This document shows positions 56,798 to 64,000 of a stretch of DNA of 64,000 bases, one piece after another. The stretch is taken from the NCBI GenBank assembly GCA_965202985.1, contig CBDBCF010000002.1, positions 638,451-702,450 of the forward strand. The letters run 5' to 3'. The stretch is from Longimicrobiales bacterium. Lineage in GTDB: Bacteria > Gemmatimonadota > Gemmatimonadetes > Longimicrobiales > Gaopeijiaceae. Each line of letters starts with the position of its first letter. Position 1 is the stretch's first letter. The notes below the pieces were generated by a model. The model saw only the letters and a program-made list of their open reading frames with translations. It was not told the DNA's origin and did no database searches. The position numbers and the translations under genes were made by a program.

Positions 56798-57072
56798 GGG
56801 CAAGGGATCCTGTTGTGCGACGGGACGGGATGAGGCGCGGAGCGGGTCCGCGGGACGGGAGGCAAGATACGGCTCGCGGAGGTCCGGGACCAGCCGAAGG
56901 GGGGTGCCGCCGCTGGTTGCCTGCCGCCGAATCGTGCCCGGATATGCGCCTTTGGGACGGCGGCATGTCCGCATGGGAACCAGTTCGCTTCCGGGGGTTG
57001 CGTTGGCCGCCGGCAGGGCCTTGATTCCAGGCGAACCGGCTGGGAACCCCTTGTCCTCGGAAAGGACCTGCG

Positions 57073-57631: not shown

Positions 57632-58879
57632 GTGATTCGGTCGGGCCTGCGATCGCTCTACATCCGGGCGCGGCTGGGGGAGGAGTGGGCCCGAAGCGGC
57701 GTCGTGTGGTGGCCTCTGGCGCGCCGCTTCGTCGCCGATCCCTACCCGTCCTATCGGAAGCTGCGCGAGAAGGACCCGTTCCACTACAGTCCGCTGACCG
57801 GCCAGCTCGTGGTTTCGCGCTACGAGGACGTGGACCGCATCCTCCGCGATCACAAGCGGTTCAGCAACGACCTCCGGCTGGCGCGGCCCCGGCGGAAGGC
57901 CGACGCCCGAAGCAAGCTGAAGCCCAGCATGTTGTCGCTGGACCCGCCGGACCACACGCGGTTGCGGAGCCTGGTGAGCCGGGCGTTCACGCCGCGCTCC
58001 GTGGCCAAGATGGAGGAGTTCGCGCGGTCCACGGCCCACGCGCTGCTGGACGAGGCCGCCGGATCAGGCGAGTTCGATCTGATGGCCGCCTTCGCGGAGC
58101 CGCTGCCGACGCTGGTGATCGCAAGGATGATCGGCGTCCCGTCCGAGGACCTGGACCGGTTCAAGGAGTGGTCGGACAAGTTCGCACGAGTGCTCGAGCC
58201 CCTGCTCTCGGAACGCGAAGCGCGGGACGTGTTCCACGCCGAACAGGAGTTCGCCCGCTACTTCGCCGGGATCATCGAGCAGAGGCGCCGGGAGCCGTGC
58301 GACGACTTGGTGACTCGGCTGGTCCAGGCCGAAGACGAGGGCGACCGGCTCACCTCCGGCGAGACGCAGGTCATGCTGCGGCTGCTGCTGGTGGCGGGGA
58401 ACGAAACCACCACCAACCTGATCGGCAACGGCACGCTGGCGCTGCTGCGCCACCCCGAACAGATGGAGCTTCTCCGCGGCGAGCCCGACCAGGCCGCCGC
58501 CGCGGTGGAAGAGCTGGCCCGCTACGACTCGCCGGTGCAGGTGGACGGGCGCTTCGTCAAGGAGGATATGGTGCTGGGCGGCAGGAGGGTGCGCACCGGC
58601 GACCGGCTGGCGTTGTTGATCGGCGGCGCCAACCACGATCCCGAGCAGTTCGGGCGCCCCGACGAGCTCGACATCGCTCGCACCGACGGCGGCAACATCT
58701 CGTTCGGGCGCGGCATCCACCACTGCCTTGGCGCACCGCTGGCCCGGCTGGAGAGCCGCGTCGCGTTCCAGGTGCTGCTGGAGCGGTTCCCGAAGCTCCG
58801 TCTGGGCGACCGTCCGCCCGAGTTCCGGCCTACGATCGTGCTCCGGGGGTTGAAGCGGCTGGGGGTTCGGGCGGCGTGA
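57632..58879 (+). CDS. Cytochrome P450
   Basis: I-helix 'VAGNETT', 'ELARYDSPV' (ExxR) and heme loop 'FGRGIHHCLGAPLA'. GTG start at 57632. 415 aa. Confidence 0.9.
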   Translation: MIRSGLRSLYIRARLGEEWARSGVVWWPLARRFVADPYPSYRKLREKDPFHYSPLTGQLVVSRYEDVDRILRDHKRFSNDLRLARPRRKADARSKLKPSMLSLDPPDHTRLRSLVSRAFTPRSVAKMEEFARSTAHALLDEAAGSGEFDLMAAFAEPLPTLVIARMIGVPSEDLDRFKEWSDKFARVLEPLLSEREARDVFHAEQEFARYFAGIIEQRRREPCDDLVTRLVQAEDEGDRLTSGETQVMLRLLLVAGNETTTNLIGNGTLALLRHPEQMELLRGEPDQAAAAVEELARYDSPVQVDGRFVKEDMVLGGRRVRTGDRLALLIGGANHDPEQFGRPDELDIARTDGGNISFGRGIHHCLGAPLARLESRVAFQVLLERFPKLRLGDRPPEFRPTIVLRGLKRLGVRAA

Positions 58880-59300
58880 GAGTCGGAGTCCAGACGTGGA
58901 TGCGATGCTTGAACCTGCGAAAGTCCTTGGCGTTGAAGGTCAGCAGCCTGTCCTCGCCGTAGGCAAGCATGGTGGCGACGATGTTGGCGTCGTGGACCTG
59001 CTTTCCCGCCACCGGCGCCTCCGCGCACAGCTCCGCCAGCTTGACGGCCACCCTCGGCCCGTCCTCCAGCACCTGGAACGATCCAACCAGCCGGGCCGCG
59101 TCGTCCAGCGCGTCCGCCATCGGCAGCGGCGCCGCCCACGTCTGCGGCCTTGTGACCACCGCCAAGTACTCCCGAACGACTTGGCGGCTGATCCTGACGG
59201 CGCCTTCGGCCCGCGCCCTCTCGAGGCTTGCGGACGCCGCGGCCCTGTTCGGGGCGCTCGCCACCCGCACCGCGACGAGCACGTTCGTGTCCACGAACAT
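58830..59300 (-). CDS. vapC: PIN-domain ribonuclease toxin (VapC-like)
   Basis: 'MFVDTNVLV' (Asp4), 'REYL', 'VHDANIVATML' and 'TFNAKDF'. It starts 3 nt after the upstream antitoxin-like gene. Confidence 0.8.
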   Translation of the reverse strand: MFVDTNVLVAVRVASAPNRAAASASLERARAEGAVRISRQVVREYLAVVTRPQTWAAPLPMADALDDAARLVGSFQVLEDGPRVAVKLAELCAEAPVAGKQVHDANIVATMLAYGEDRLLTFNAKDFRRFKHRIHVWTPTLTPPEPPAASTPGARS

Positions 59301-59303
59301 CGA

Positions 59304-59717
59304 TCACCGGCCCTCGTCGTCGTAGATCTGTTCCCTTCGCGCCGCGAAGCCCTGGGGCCACGGTCCGAAGTCGCGGGGCGGCAGCAGCTCGTCGACAGGG
59401 GGAACGCGAGGCGTCGCCGCGGAGACCGACGTCCCCTCGATCCTTTCGAACACCAGTTCCTCGGCCCCGAGGTCCACCAACCGCGTCCTCCACCCCGCGG
59501 CTTGCCAAGCCAGAGCATGGCTGTGGCCGCCTCCTGCGCCCGGATTGGCCCACCACGGCCGGTGGATGCGAGCCGAATCCGGCAAGGAAAAGCCCAAGAT
59601 CGTCTCGATCTCGACAAAGGAAGCGCGCCAACGCGGCTCGGCGAGTTCGGAGAGGTGGCGGTACAGCGGCGCGTACTTTCCCCTGGAAGCGACCTTGCGG
59701 ACGAGTTGCGTGGTCAT
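59304..59717 (-). CDS. Putative cognate antitoxin with atypical N-terminal domain
   Basis: 137 aa, immediately upstream of the PIN gene. The C-terminal 'PPRDFGPWPQGFAARREQIYDDEGR' resembles the toxin-binding tail of AbrB/VapB-type antitoxins. The N-terminal ~70 aa ('KYAPLYRHLSE...FVEIETILGFSLPDSARIHRPWWAN') is not a classical AbrB/RHH/Phd fold as far as I can tell. Confidence 0.55.
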   Translation of the reverse strand: MTTQLVRKVASRGKYAPLYRHLSELAEPRWRASFVEIETILGFSLPDSARIHRPWWANPGAGGGHSHALAWQAAGWRTRLVDLGAEELVFERIEGTSVSAATPRVPPVDELLPPRDFGPWPQGFAARREQIYDDEGR

Positions 59718-59796
59718 CGGGGGCTCCGTTGGTTGAGTTGAGCGGGAGTCGGAACACGACGCTGCGCTCCGGCCGAACGCAGGTTCTGGTTTCGCC

Positions 59797-59826
59797 AGAT
59801 ATGAGTGAGTATATGAGTACTATAGC
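59797..59826 (-). promoter_or_regulatory. AT-rich patch with direct repeat ATATGAGT x2 upstream of the TA module (candidate promoter/operator)
   Basis: atATGAGTgagtatATGAGTactatag. The minus strand reads TATAGT (-10-like) followed by ACTCATAT x2. It lies 80-110 nt upstream of ATG 59717. Confidence 0.35.
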
Positions 59827-60087
59827 CGATTGGGTAGGGGGCCAGTCCCGTCTGCGCCCCTGCGTGGTCCCAGGCAGGCCCCTCGCTTCCAGATCAGAAT
59901 TTTCTTGCGGTTGCGGCCTTCGGGCCGTATTGTGCGGCTCGTGCCGGTCAACCGAGGGAGGCGCGGGAGGTAGCGCGCAATCGTTGCAACCCGTATCCTC
60001 CCCGGATTCTCGGCTCGGGCAACGGCCTTGTTGCCGCCATATAGCCTGCGGGAACGGAGATCCCGCCTACACAACGGAGGATAGGAC

Positions 60088-63000
60088 ATGCACCCACCGC
60101 TACCGAGACGGGCCCTTGGAGTCGCCACCAGCCTCACGACGGGATCACGGGGGGGGGGGGGGGGGGGGGGATCGCCCTTCTGCTCTTCTTCCTCGTGGCC
60201 ACGGGCCAAGCAGCGGGCCAGCAGGCGGGCACCGTCACTGGCATGGTTTCCGACGTGGCGACGGGCCAGACGCTGGAATCCGCGCTAGTTCGGCTGAACG
60301 ACAACGAGGCCGGGGTCCTCACCAACCAGTCCGGCCGCTACCTGATGGTCGGCGTGCCTGCTGGGACCCATCAGCTGAACTTCCTCATCGTCGGCTACGC
60401 CGAGCAGACGCTCGAGGTCACGGTTGTTGCCGGCGAGACCACGGTCTTGAACGCCGAACTCGCGGCACAGGCGATCCAGATGCAGGACTTGGTCGTGACG
60501 GGGGTGGCCCGGGCTACGCCACGCGTGAAGCTCCCCTTCACGGTCGAGAAGCTGGACATCGCCGACGTTCCCGTGCCCGCCGTATCCGCCGAGTCGTTCC
60601 TGGTGGGCAAGGTGCCGGGCGTGAAGGTCGTCCGTGGCTCAGGCCAGCCAGGCCAGACCGGCGACATCCTGCTTCGAGGCGCCACCGCCATTAGTGGCGG
60701 CCAAGGCCCTCTCGTTATCGTCGACGGCATCATTACCGACGACAGCTTCGACGACATCGCGGCACTGGACATCGAATCGATGGAGGTCGTCAAGGGAGCC
60801 GCCGGCGCGTCCCTCTACGGTTCACGGGCGGCCAACGGCGTCATCCAAATCCGCACCAAGCGCGGAACCGGCTTCGGTGGCCGCGATTACAGCCGAATCG
60901 TAACCAACAACGAACTCGGCTCCGAACGAATGTACGGCCGCGTTCCACTGTCCCAGAATCATCCTTGGAAGCTCGACGCTGGCGGCAATCTTGTGGACGT
61001 ACGTGGCGAGTCGATCCCCGACATCACCGACCCCGACGCAAACAACCCTGCACTCAACGGCGACGACGTTTTCACGTCGTTTCAGGACGGAAGGTGGCCG
61101 TCGTCGCTTCCCAACTACGACCAGCTCGGCCGGATTTTCTCCCCCGGGACGCTGCTCACGAACTCCGTTGCGACGGAGGGACGCAATGGGGCCACCAACT
61201 ATCGGGCGTCCTTTGAGCACCGGGTCGACCGCGGTATCCTGCCCGACTTCAACGACGGATTTGGTCGAAAGGGATTCCGGATCAACGTTGATCACGATGT
61301 CCGAGACAACCTCGCAGTCTCACTGAGCACGTCATACAGCCAACGAACCCAGCAAGACATGGGGGACACTCCTTGGTATGAAATCACGTTCATGCCGCCG
61401 TACGTGGACCTGCTTAGACGTGATCCATCAACGATCGGGCTTCCCTTCTGTCCGTCCAACGGCTGTCTCTACGTGCACCCGGATCCGTTCAACGAAGGAA
61501 CTGTCGACAACCCGCTGTACAACCTGGAATTGTATGATTTTCGTGACAGGAGACAAACCGTAGCTGCTGCTGCTACCGTCCGGTGGACACCCTTTGCCTG
61601 GATGGATCTTGAAGGCGTCTTCGGTATGGATCGCAAGGCTTTGGCTCAAACGGATATTGTTCCCGAGGGTCTCCAGACGATCACTACGGGCACTTCCCCT
61701 GGCAGCTACTTCCGCTATCAGAATCACGATCAAGACGTCAACGCCGAGGCTACTCTCTCGTTCAACAAAGCGTTCGGAGACTTCGCTACCAGAACTCGAG
61801 TTCGTTATTCGCAGGAGAACAGTTCCTACGACAGATTCGACACGTATGGTGAAGACTTCTTGGCCTCCGATATTCCTCGGCTCAATAACCTCGACCCGGA
61901 GACTTTCTCCTCCGGCTCGTACATTAGCGAAGTCGTCTCTGAGAACTATTTCCTGATCTCCGCGTTGGACTACCAAGGCAAGTACATTCTCGACGGCGTA
62001 GTTCGCCGAGACGGCTCCAGCCTCTTTGGCGAGAACCAGAGATGGCACACCTTCGCTCGCGGGTCCGCTGCGTGGAGGCTAGCTCAGGAAGCTTGGTGGC
62101 CATTTGACCAGATCAACGAATTCAAGCTCCGCTATTCCGTCGGTACGGCAGGTACTCGTCCTAGGTTCGAGGCCCAGTACGAGACCTACAGCGTCGGCGG
62201 CGGCAGCATTACGCCGGTCACACTAGGCAACAAGGAGCTCAAGCCCCAGAAGACCGTCGAAGTCGAATACGGCATGGACATGGTCTTGTTCGACAGGTTC
62301 AACATGGGCCTGACCTACGCCACAACGTCTTCCGAGGATCAGATTATCCAGGTCCCGCTTCCCAAGGCGGGCGGATTCGGTTCGCAATGGCAAAACGCAG
62401 GGACCTTGCAGTCCAGCACGTGGGAGTACTTCCTCGAGACTTCGCTGATCAACACCGAAAACGTGACCTGGACCGCCAGACTGAACTTCGACCGCACGCT
62501 AGAAGAGATCACGCGCCTCGATCGACCTGCGTTCCGAAGCGGCTTTTTCTACTTTCGCGACGATGAAATCTTCGGCTCCTTCTTTGGTGCAGCTTGGGCG
62601 CGGACATGTGCCCACCTTCCCGCTGGCGCACCGTGTGACCAGTTCGAACTTAATGACGACGGGCTACTCGTCTGGGTCGGGTCCGGAGCCAGCTACACCG
62701 ACGGCATAGGAAACGGCCTTTGGGGCACCGAATCGTCCGGCCAGACAGGAGAAGATGTATTTCAGTGGGGCATGCCCATTAGGAGGTTCGACGAGTGCGA
62801 GAGTCGCCGGCAGGGTGGCCTTGGTTGCTCCGATTTCCTTTATATGGGTAACACCAGGCCCGATTTCAGCGTGAGTTTTTCCAACAACTTCAGATGGAAG
62901 GACCTGACGCTGTATGTGCTGTTGGACGGCGAATTTGGCACGGAGATATACAACAGGACTCGTCAATGGGCCTATCGAGACAATCGCTCCGGCGACCAAG

Positions 63001-63353
63001 ATCAGCTCGGCAAGGCGGACGGCCTGAAAAAACCGGTGGCGTATTACCAGCGCCTCTACAACACCAACGCACTCAACGAGTGGTTCGTGGAGGACGGCAC
63101 GTTCATCAAGGTTCGCGAAGCATCTGTGCGATACTCGGTTCGGCCGGACTGGATCGACTCGCTGTTCGCCGGCCGGGTCACCGCGGTCGAGCTCAATCTG
63201 ATTGGCCGCAACCTCTTCACGTTTACCGACTACGCCGGCTATGATCCCGAGGTTGGCAACGGCAATGGCGGATCGGACGTAGTCGGGCGCATAGACAGCT
63301 ACTCCTATCCCAACTTCCGAACCATCAGCGCGAACGTCGAGATCATCTTCTGA
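60088..63353 (+). CDS. SusC/RagA-family TonB-dependent outer-membrane receptor, with the reading frame interrupted inside a G22 tract
   Basis: GGAGG plus 8 nt precedes ATG 60088. The main frame is open from 60171 to the stop at 63353. CarboxypepD_reg-like 'GTVTGMVSDVATGQTL...'. Plug 'ILLRGATAISGGQGPLVIVDGI...MEVVKGAAGASLYGSRAANGVIQIRTKRG'. C-terminal '...NVEIIF'. ATG 60088 is in a different frame from 60171 onward, and joining them needs G23 or G20. Confidence 0.85.
60149..60170 (+). repeat. Homopolymeric G22 tract
   Basis: Counted directly: g at 60149-60170, flanked by ...gatcac and atcgcc.... Confidence 0.95.
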
Positions 63354-63379: not shown

Positions 63380-64000
63380 ATGCCTAACATCGCCAAAAAG
63401 CTAGCTGCATCCAGCATGTTGCTGGTGCGGAACGTCGGCGTGCTCGCCTTCTCTCTGCTGATGGTCGCGTGCGCGGACCTGACGGTCGTGAACTACAACG
63501 ACCCCGATCGCGAGCGTGCGATCGCCGGCGCCTCCGACGTGGAAGCTCTGATCAGCGGAGGATGGCAGAGCTGGCACGTGGTGGCGCACCAGAACTACCC
63601 GGGGTCGGCCCTCAGCACGGCGGCCGATGCGCACTCGTCCTCGTGGGGCAACTGGGGGATGCGCGACTCCGGATGGGAACCCCGCAAGTCGTACAACAAC
63701 GACCCGTCGTACAGCTACCGATCCCTGGCCGAAACCCCGTGGACTCGATCGTACCGGTCCCTAGCCGCCGTGCGGGACGGCTTGCTGGCGATCGAGGGTG
63801 GAACCCGGATTCAGGAGAGTCCACCGCTTGGAGAGGACAACACTGATCGAGCGATCGTCTTCGCAAAGATGATCCAGGCGATGTCCTTGGCCAACTTGGC
63901 CGTGCTGTTCGACCAAGCGTTCGTCGTCGACGAAACCGTCGAGGACGTGACCGCATTGGAGCTTCAGGGCTACGAACAGGTCTGGAGCGCAGCGGAGGCC
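63380..64000 (+). CDS. SusD/RagB-family lipoprotein (5' part; runs off the window)
   Basis: Hand-translated from ATG 63380 as MPNIAKKLAASSMLLVRNVGVLAFSLLMVACADLTVVNYNDPDRERAIAG..., with lipobox 'LLMVAC'. The frame is open to 64000 and starts 27 nt after the SusC stop. It is not in the supplied ORF track because it has no stop within the window. Confidence 0.7.
   Translation, partial: MPNIAKKLAASSMLLVRNVGVLAFSLLMVACADLTVVNYNDPDRERAIAGASDVEALISGGWQSWHVVAHQNYPGSALSTAADAHSSSWGNWGMRDSGWEPRKSYNNDPSYSYRSLAETPWTRSYRSLAAVRDGLLAIEGGTRIQESPPLGEDNTDRAIVFAKMIQAMSLANLAVLFDQAFVVDETVEDVTALELQGYEQVWSAAEA

Follow-up and report, generated by a model that had tools for sequence, protein, structure and literature searches.

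We have identified, within a 64,000-nt stretch of contig CBDBCF010000002.1 from a Longimicrobiales bacterium (the whole stretch is referred to here as the window), a run of 22 consecutive G residues at the 5' end of a gene encoding a SusC/RagA-family TonB-dependent transporter. The run sits exactly where the signal peptide passes from its charged n-region to its hydrophobic core (h-region), and its length determines whether the start codon and the transporter body share a reading frame. Tracts of different lengths occupy this position in near-identical strains and in further lineages, and we consider it probable that they represent a genuine, maintained and hypermutable contingency tract, which by slipped-strand mispairing would toggle translation of the signal peptide together with SusC. 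A preliminary description of this DNA, made from its letters, had put the run forward as a candidate slipped-strand phase switch, and the variable lengths now found in relatives, in frame as well as out of frame, lend support to that proposal. The elements concerned are as follows.

60076–60080, + strand: Shine–Dalgarno-like GGAGG, 7 nt from the ATG, read from the sequence; kept in same-species relatives and GGAGG- or GGAG-like in other lineages
60088–60148, + strand: start codon and signal-peptide n-region (MHPPLPRRALGVATSLTTGS, then the first base of an Arg codon), from DNA alignment and the same N-terminus in orthologues
60149–60170, + strand: G22 homopolymer, a poly-Gly (GGG) tract if in frame and the probable hypermutable element, from the sequence and homologous tracts in relatives
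60171–63353, + strand: SusC/RagA frame with h-region and cleavage region (IALLLFFLVATGQAAGQQAG), CarboxypepD_reg, Plug, barrel and stop, one base off the register of ATG 60088, from the frames and domain matches
60286–60288, + strand: stop codon of the 66-aa out-of-frame product, from frame reading

The tract was read directly from the window sequence (60149–60170, + strand). The next-longest homopolymer of the window, which has a GC content of 69.4%, is 7 nt, and dinucleotide-preserving shuffles give an expectation of 0.15 occurrences for a 12-G word. Translation from ATG 60088 (frame 1) gives MHPPLPRRALGVATSLTTGSRGGGGGGGS..., reaches the G22 run 61 nt past the ATG and, as sequenced, ends at the stop codon at 60286–60288 with a product of 66 aa. 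The SusC frame (frame 0) is open from 60045, through the tract, to its stop at 63353; after the tract it reads ...GGGGGGG IALLLFFLVATGQAAGQQAGTVTG... for 1060 codons, and its first ATG, GTG or TTG is GTG 60195, which lies inside the hydrophobic core. By frame arithmetic, addition of one G (G23) or removal of two (G20) would fuse the part encoded from ATG 60088 with the SusC frame, and the hydropathy maximum of this hypothetical fused precursor falls right behind the tract. Contingency loci are recognized by a homopolymer of at least about 8 nt in the 5' part of an ORF, the length of which sets the reading frame, and the G22 run has both properties. The preliminary description had the position of the run exactly, and our frame reading agrees with its further claims that the frame of ATG 60088 leaves the SusC frame and ends at 60288, that the SusC frame lacks an upstream start and has GTG 60195 as its sole in-frame start (it is the first canonical one), and that G23 or G20 would join the two parts. 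It had also described a GGAGG motif 8 nt from the ATG; the motif is present at 60076–60080, and the spacer is 7 nt. Directly 3' of the run, at 60171–60194, the h-region codons form a pyrimidine-rich stretch (ATCGCCCTTCTGCTCTTCTTCCTC) that pairs with the G run in a predicted RNA fold; the predicted fold around the tract is not more stable than that of shuffled sequence (z=−0.14).

The long ORF is a SusC/RagA-family TonB-dependent transporter: it matches TIGR04056 (SusC/RagA) with 496.9 bits (cut-off 368.25) over model positions 2–981, and the SusC signature TIGR04057 with 48.7 against a cut-off of 46.2, and PF07715 (Plug), PF13715 and PF13620 (CarboxypepD_reg-like) all score over their cut-offs. 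The closest homologues of the window SusC all come from metagenome-assembled genomes (MAGs) of Gemmatimonadota, and the orthologues at about 65% identity are labelled Longimicrobiales. In the orthologues P0001, P0123, P0124 and P0003 the same N-terminal peptide (MHPPLPRRAL... or MHPPLLKRAL...) is fused in frame to the SusC body, and ATG 60088 is therefore the real start. One of them, P0001, differs from the window at 2 aa across the 1060 residues after the tract; it is 1085 aa long, begins MHPPLPRRALGVGTSLTTGSRGGGGIALLLFF and is the predicted fusion, with four glycines at the tract.

Comparison of near-identical strains at the DNA level located the variation in the tract itself. Locus L001 is 99.1% identical to the window across 4.4 kb and the sole gap in the alignment is the tract (G14 as opposed to G22), while the gene bodies differ by 16 synonymous and 2 non-synonymous codons. 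Two further same-species contigs carry G18 (L086, in which the next codon is GTG and not ATC) and G11 (L087), both in frame, so that four lengths (G22, G14, G18 and G11) are found at nucleotide identities of 98.7–99.1%. The 3183-nt gene bodies of L001 and L087 are 100% identical, and their tracts are 3 G apart. Across 11 kb of alignment between the window and L086 there are only three further indels, each of 1 nt and all between called genes, so that no other site of the region comes near the tract in proneness to indels. A small second case of between-strain homopolymer length difference was seen at 56899–56904, between a BNR/Sortilin-type gene and an apolipoprotein-like gene, where an intergenic G6 of the window is G7 in the 99%-identical L086.

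We then placed the tract in other lineages by DNA alignment, the homologous position being directly 5' of the hydrophobic-core codons. Identities in the following list are amino acid identities to the window, except where nucleotide identity is given.

L002 and L003, 80%: A5G10, in frame
L093, 73%: G15 (a 17-nt run whose second G has become A), in frame
L004, 73%: G10, out of frame
L005, 73%: G12, out of frame
L094, 73% cluster: G10, in frame
L088, 73% cluster, 96% nucleotide identity to L094: G18, out of frame
L091 and L092, 68%: G14, in frame
L007, a Longimicrobiales MAG, 65%: G12, in frame

At least six diverged lineages thus have a tract at the homologous codon position, and polymorphism of tract length between near-identical strains, a further property by which contingency loci are known, recurs: one species has G11, G14, G18 and G22 (at about 99% identity), another G10, G12 and G15 (at about 98–99%) and a third G10 and G18. 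Between L093 and L004 the tract is the single indel in 12.5 kb, and within protein clusters of 90% identity the number of glycines at the tract site ranges from 2 to 7. The preliminary description had suggested comparing tract length in orthologous loci and had named absence or invariance of the tract in all relatives as evidence against a switch; the outcome was the opposite, with the tract present and variable in length. Orthologues with no tract at all also exist (P0002, P0006, P0008–P0014, L006 and L089). Of these, L089 was the one orthologue found in a scan of JGI metagenomes; a scan of species-representative genomes with a 31-sequence profile used very general SusC motifs and returned mostly Bacteroidota, with L006 and L007 as the only two orthologues.

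Among the Gly codons of the SusC gene bodies GGG accounts for 12–25% and GGC for 55–62%, whereas the tract glycines are nearly all GGG, and the Arg or Lys codon before the tract usually ends in G. A poly-Gly spacer under selection at the protein level alone would be expected to drift to GGC. That runs of G10 to G22 with at most one interruption have been kept in six lineages is a sign of slippage dynamics and, most probably, of selection acting on the mutability of the tract. The reading frame is also constrained. Protein sequences put about 42 of about 46 tract-bearing alleles in frame (p=3e-16, the neutral expectation being 1/3), and 27 of the 31 distinct alleles (p=9e-10), which means that the DNA frame matters and that the transporter is useful, under selection and mostly switched on (ON). 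The out-of-frame alleles, four in number (the window, L004, L005 and L088), have uninterrupted gene bodies and are not decaying; the first three lie on contigs of megabase size, for which consensus errors in homopolymers are possible.

Our current working hypothesis is that slipped-strand mispairing during replication adds G residues to, or removes them from, the tract. With 2+3n G (11, 14, 17, 20, 23), ATG 60088 would be joined to the SusC frame and a full precursor made, in which a poly-Gly spacer of variable length separates the n-region from the h-region of the signal peptide. At other lengths translation would end after about 66 codons and no internal start would supply the export signal, so that the receptor would be missing from the outer membrane (OFF). 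One-base changes would switch the gene and three-base changes would alter the spacer only, which would account for the many in-frame length variants. Populations would then hold heritable and reversible ON and OFF cells for a surface transporter, the consensus usually being ON because the transporter is useful, and the OFF variants forming a standing reserve. That the mechanism is slippage, that a clone can switch back and forth, and what agent selects for this are inferred. TonB-dependent receptors are common phage and bacteriocin receptors, and the likely benefit would be a receptor-less minority that escapes attackers using the receptor (phages, bacteriocins or predators) or is spared its cost. 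Phase-variable phage receptors and SusC/SusD loci have been discussed as such a defence (PMC8224891, PMC6625227, PMC13064476). The stronger proposition, that this is an adaptively maintained contingency locus of free-living, uncultured Gemmatimonadota, long kept in the signal peptide, whose populations would always include receptor-less cells, seems to us as much open to doubt as to belief.

Three observations weigh against our reading of the tract as a switch. The in-frame excess makes OFF at most a minority state in consensus genomes, whereas in classical contingency genes OFF is common; the out-of-frame alleles are over-represented on megabase contigs, probably long-read assemblies, so that some OFF calls may be consensus errors; and no second run of at least 8 nt occurs in the 64-kb window, while about 0.45 Mb of related loci contain only a C10 (in L091) and a contig-end C21 (in L088). 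When considering such data, it is important that the count itself is questioned, as homopolymers of 10–22 nt are the main error class of long-read consensus. The tract may be real and variable between strains and yet the count of 22 wrong, the true length being G23 or G20, the gene ON and the split signal peptide technical, and we regard this as a possibility to be reckoned with, although a somewhat doubtful one. The window gene (identical to P0122) is carried on a contig of 940,285 bp, and among the five DNA-verified alleles from megabase contigs L094 and L007 are ON, against the window, L004 and L005, which are each out of frame by one base from an in-frame length; in the scaffold series (PANK22-1), OFF alleles amount to one of the seven that were DNA-verified (L088) and about 1 in 40 at the protein level. 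The contig names ctg22263_191x_c (L004) and ctg394340_37.61x_l (L005) are presumably long-read metagenome assembler output, which they resemble. Yet the same long contigs have no other coding indels relative to their short-scaffold relatives (over 11 kb there are three indels, all intergenic and of 1 nt, and over 12.5 kb there are none), one of the OFF contigs (L004) has, going by its name, a coverage of 191x, and an OFF allele (L088, G18) is present in the scaffold series too. As the other six of the seven alleles of that series, with tracts of 10 to 18 G, are in frame, its length calls are mostly accurate and its one OFF call can be believed. Whether or not G22 is a miscount, the tract is of the same nature. 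A tract that is nothing but an artefact, produced by the poly-G of two-colour chemistry or by a chimeric contig join, is hardly conceivable: poly-G artefacts do exist, and the related contig L088 ends in a 21-nt C/G run (1–21), but both flanks of the window tract run collinear with those of twelve further loci, which come from independent samples and at least two assembly pipelines and all have a G tract at the same codon position, and these comparative data rule such an origin out.

It is also important to consider whether a real tract need be a switch. A poly-Gly spacer that happened to use GGG could have been expanded by slippage and held in frame by purifying selection, OFF alleles then being deleterious mutants and the tract a non-adaptive mutational hazard. 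The strong in-frame excess, the orthologues that manage without a tract and the lack of further tracts in the flanks all fit this explanation, but one synonymous change from GGG to the preferred GGC would remove the risk, and runs of G10 to G22 nevertheless persist in six lineages down to 65% amino acid identity. Such persistence is the classical argument for selection on mutability, and we infer from it that the hazard explanation is unlikely. Recoding would bypass the DNA frame altogether: RNA polymerase slippage on the C template run, or a −1 ribosomal shift on G GGG GGG, would express out-of-frame DNA, so that the frame would be of little consequence, or full-length protein would be made at a fixed fraction. 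The window frame needs precisely a −1 shift, a 22-nt homopolymer exceeds the length of the RNA–DNA hybrid, and GGG codons can re-pair in any frame. Efficient rescue, by transcriptional slippage or ribosomal frameshifting, would however abolish selection on the DNA frame, and the in-frame excess counts against it; the RNA fold at the tract, no more stable than shuffled sequence, and the lack of an Rfam element count against it as well, and we consider recoding improbable under either form. A role for the tract as a G-quadruplex was rejected, as the G10 tracts of relatives would be too short for an intramolecular quadruplex and such a role could not explain the conserved feature.

The two longer runs outside the SusC tract deserve mention in their own right. 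In L091, from the lineage with a 68%-identical SusC, the C10 lies at 1113–1122, where a type II secretion F-like gene and a 102-aa ORF are separated by a short spacer. The 21-nt C run at 1–21 of L088 is at the end of PANK22-1_SAMN12291591 scaffold_28, and the other strand reads ATG GAG CCG GCC GTC ACG GAA TTC and then G21; this may represent another gene whose 5' end carries a poly-G tract, at which the assembly broke, or a contig-end poly-G artefact. Automatic placing of other runs of at least 8 nt relative to ORF starts was too noisy in GC-rich DNA to be used.

The tract has consequences for annotation. The deposited gene call in the window starts at ATG 60243 and gives a 1036-aa product without a signal peptide, identical to P0122 of NCBI and ENA. 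Related out-of-frame alleles have been given a truncated call (P0150) or calls from spurious upstream starts in another frame (P0145 and P0155), which was confirmed at the DNA level for all three. Tracts of this kind thus lead to truncated gene calls, the window SusC being deposited as a 1036-aa fragment, and can break assemblies; annotation pipelines ought to flag them instead of calling pseudogenes.

The surroundings of the gene were searched for other means of control and for a partner. The two flanking elements are as follows.

59718–60075, + strand: intergenic region upstream of SusC, with no sigma-70-like site, no Rfam family and no inverted repeats of the invertible-promoter type
63380–64000, + strand: 5' part of a downstream partner gene (563 aa in relatives), a lipoprotein, possibly divergent SusD-like, with lipobox LMVAC; conserved after SusC

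In the approximately 370 nt upstream of SusC we found no sigma-70-like promoter and no riboswitch or other Rfam family. A reading of the locus as a regulatory RNA was dropped, there being no Rfam family and no unusually stable RNA fold. The intergenic region contains a 1-nt indel relative to a relative, at 59758, and an AT-rich island at 59795–59830 (...gatatgagtgagtatatgagtactatagcc...), about 260–290 nt upstream of the SusC start in an otherwise GC-rich region; the island might mark a promoter, and the sigma-70 scan had no match there. Around the locus the only inverted repeat was a weak pair of 18 nt, 78% complementary, with arms 858 nt apart, and no recombinase was present among the genes called next to the orthologous loci; the upstream neighbours of the SusC gene encode PIN and DUF7662 proteins and a P450. 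Control by an invertible promoter or shufflon, as in Bacteroides, was therefore set aside, since there are no suitable inverted repeats and no neighbouring recombinase. The PIN-domain gene (156 aa) and the DUF7662 gene (137 aa) form a toxin–antitoxin-like pair directly upstream of SusC (58830–59717, − strand), and the PIN gene overlaps the 3' end of the cytochrome P450 gene (57632–58879, + strand) by about 50 nt. The same-species contigs L086 and L087 share the pair; the other lineages lack it.

The downstream lipoprotein gene directly follows SusC in all orthologous loci for which gene tables were available. The 563-aa protein has no match in Pfam or NCBIfam, and a homologue search with the 207-aa start of the gene in the window returned fragments only. 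A profile of 8 downstream orthologues had a SusD-superfamily structure, 3otn, as its best PDB match, which at E=0.16 is weak and faintly suggests that the protein may be the SusD partner. Farther downstream in relatives are a small ORF, a GWxTD-domain protein, a sodium:alanine symporter and large BNR/Sortilin-type proteins. The conserved neighbourhood (L086 15462–17309, and the flanks of L002, L086, L087 and L091) includes, around the SusC–lipoprotein pair, the GWxTD-domain protein, the symporter and two or three of the large proteins, which are of BNR/Sortilin-Vps10 type; the 73% lineage instead has amino-acid permeases and an S9 peptidase. These neighbourhoods hint at peptide- or amino-acid-related uptake rather than glycan uptake.

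If the stronger, adaptive proposition is true, SusC-type transporters and the Gemmatimonadota would here have their first described simple-repeat phase switch. Simple-repeat phase variation is known almost only from pathogens and host commensals. A 2025 review names phase variation in bacteria of other environments that impose stress (such as the ocean or soil) as a knowledge gap (PMC11868660). The present locus is a well-defined case in uncultured Gemmatimonadota, represented by metagenome assemblies, and would, if that proposition is true, offer an entry point to environmental phase variation. Since natural alleles extend from G10 to G22 and occur in both frames, metagenomic reads already available could yield ON/OFF ratios for comparison with phage load or substrate. 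The tract would also constitute a second, independent way of making SusC-type transporters switchable at the signal-peptide junction, beside the recombinase shufflons of Bacteroides.

The closest known case is that of the meningococcal HpuAB and HmbR poly-G tracts. In Neisseria meningitidis, as here, a poly-G tract lies inside the ORF of a TonB-dependent uptake system and its length sets the ON/OFF state (PMC3786947). HpuAB and HmbR are iron/haem receptors of the classical TonB-dependent type in host-restricted pathogens, and their switching has been shown experimentally, whereas the present transporter is of the SusC/RagA type and from uncultured Gemmatimonadota, its tract lies within the signal peptide and is conserved down to 65% amino acid identity, and switching is presumed. 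The SusC/SusD systems of Bacteroides belong to the same gene class. In Bacteroides thetaiotaomicron, shufflons relocate a segment comprising the signal peptide and CarboxypepD_reg between susC genes (bioRxiv 10.1101/2025.06.24.661302), and in Bacteroides fragilis phase-variable susC/susD regions were found in work on phage susceptibility (PMC13064476). There, as here, the point of control is the link between the start and signal peptide and the SusC body, but Bacteroides relies on a recombinase and inverted repeats (invertible promoters and shufflons), in contrast to the homopolymer described here.

Campylobacter lacks mismatch repair, and has a small, low-GC genome with dozens of tracts, as opposed to the one tract seen so far here in DNA of 69% GC. 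Campylobacter jejuni resembles the present case in having G/C homopolymers of at least about 8 nt in the 5' coding regions of surface-related genes, and its phase-variable phage receptors are treated as bet-hedging (PMC8355987, PMC8224891, PMC6625227). Switching by frameshift in poly-G/C tracts also works in the GC-rich Bordetella pertussis and Mycobacterium tuberculosis (glpK and others) (PMC1891110, PMC10334774, 10.1101/717272); these tracts are mostly about 7–10 nt, in pathogens and in genes not of the SusC type, while those described here reach 22 nt. The preliminary description had been aware of no such switching for SusC/SusD loci or for high-GC bacteria of the FCB group. High GC is no novelty, given Bordetella and M. 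tuberculosis. A full-text literature search returned no paper joining the terms TonB-dependent, homopolymeric, Bacteroidetes and phase variation, and the sole paper to combine Gemmatimonad*, phase variation and homopolymeric merely tabulates the phylum. The mechanism is thus a known one; the gene family, the phylum and the type of organism are new, the conservation of the tract is unusually deep and its allelic series is wide.

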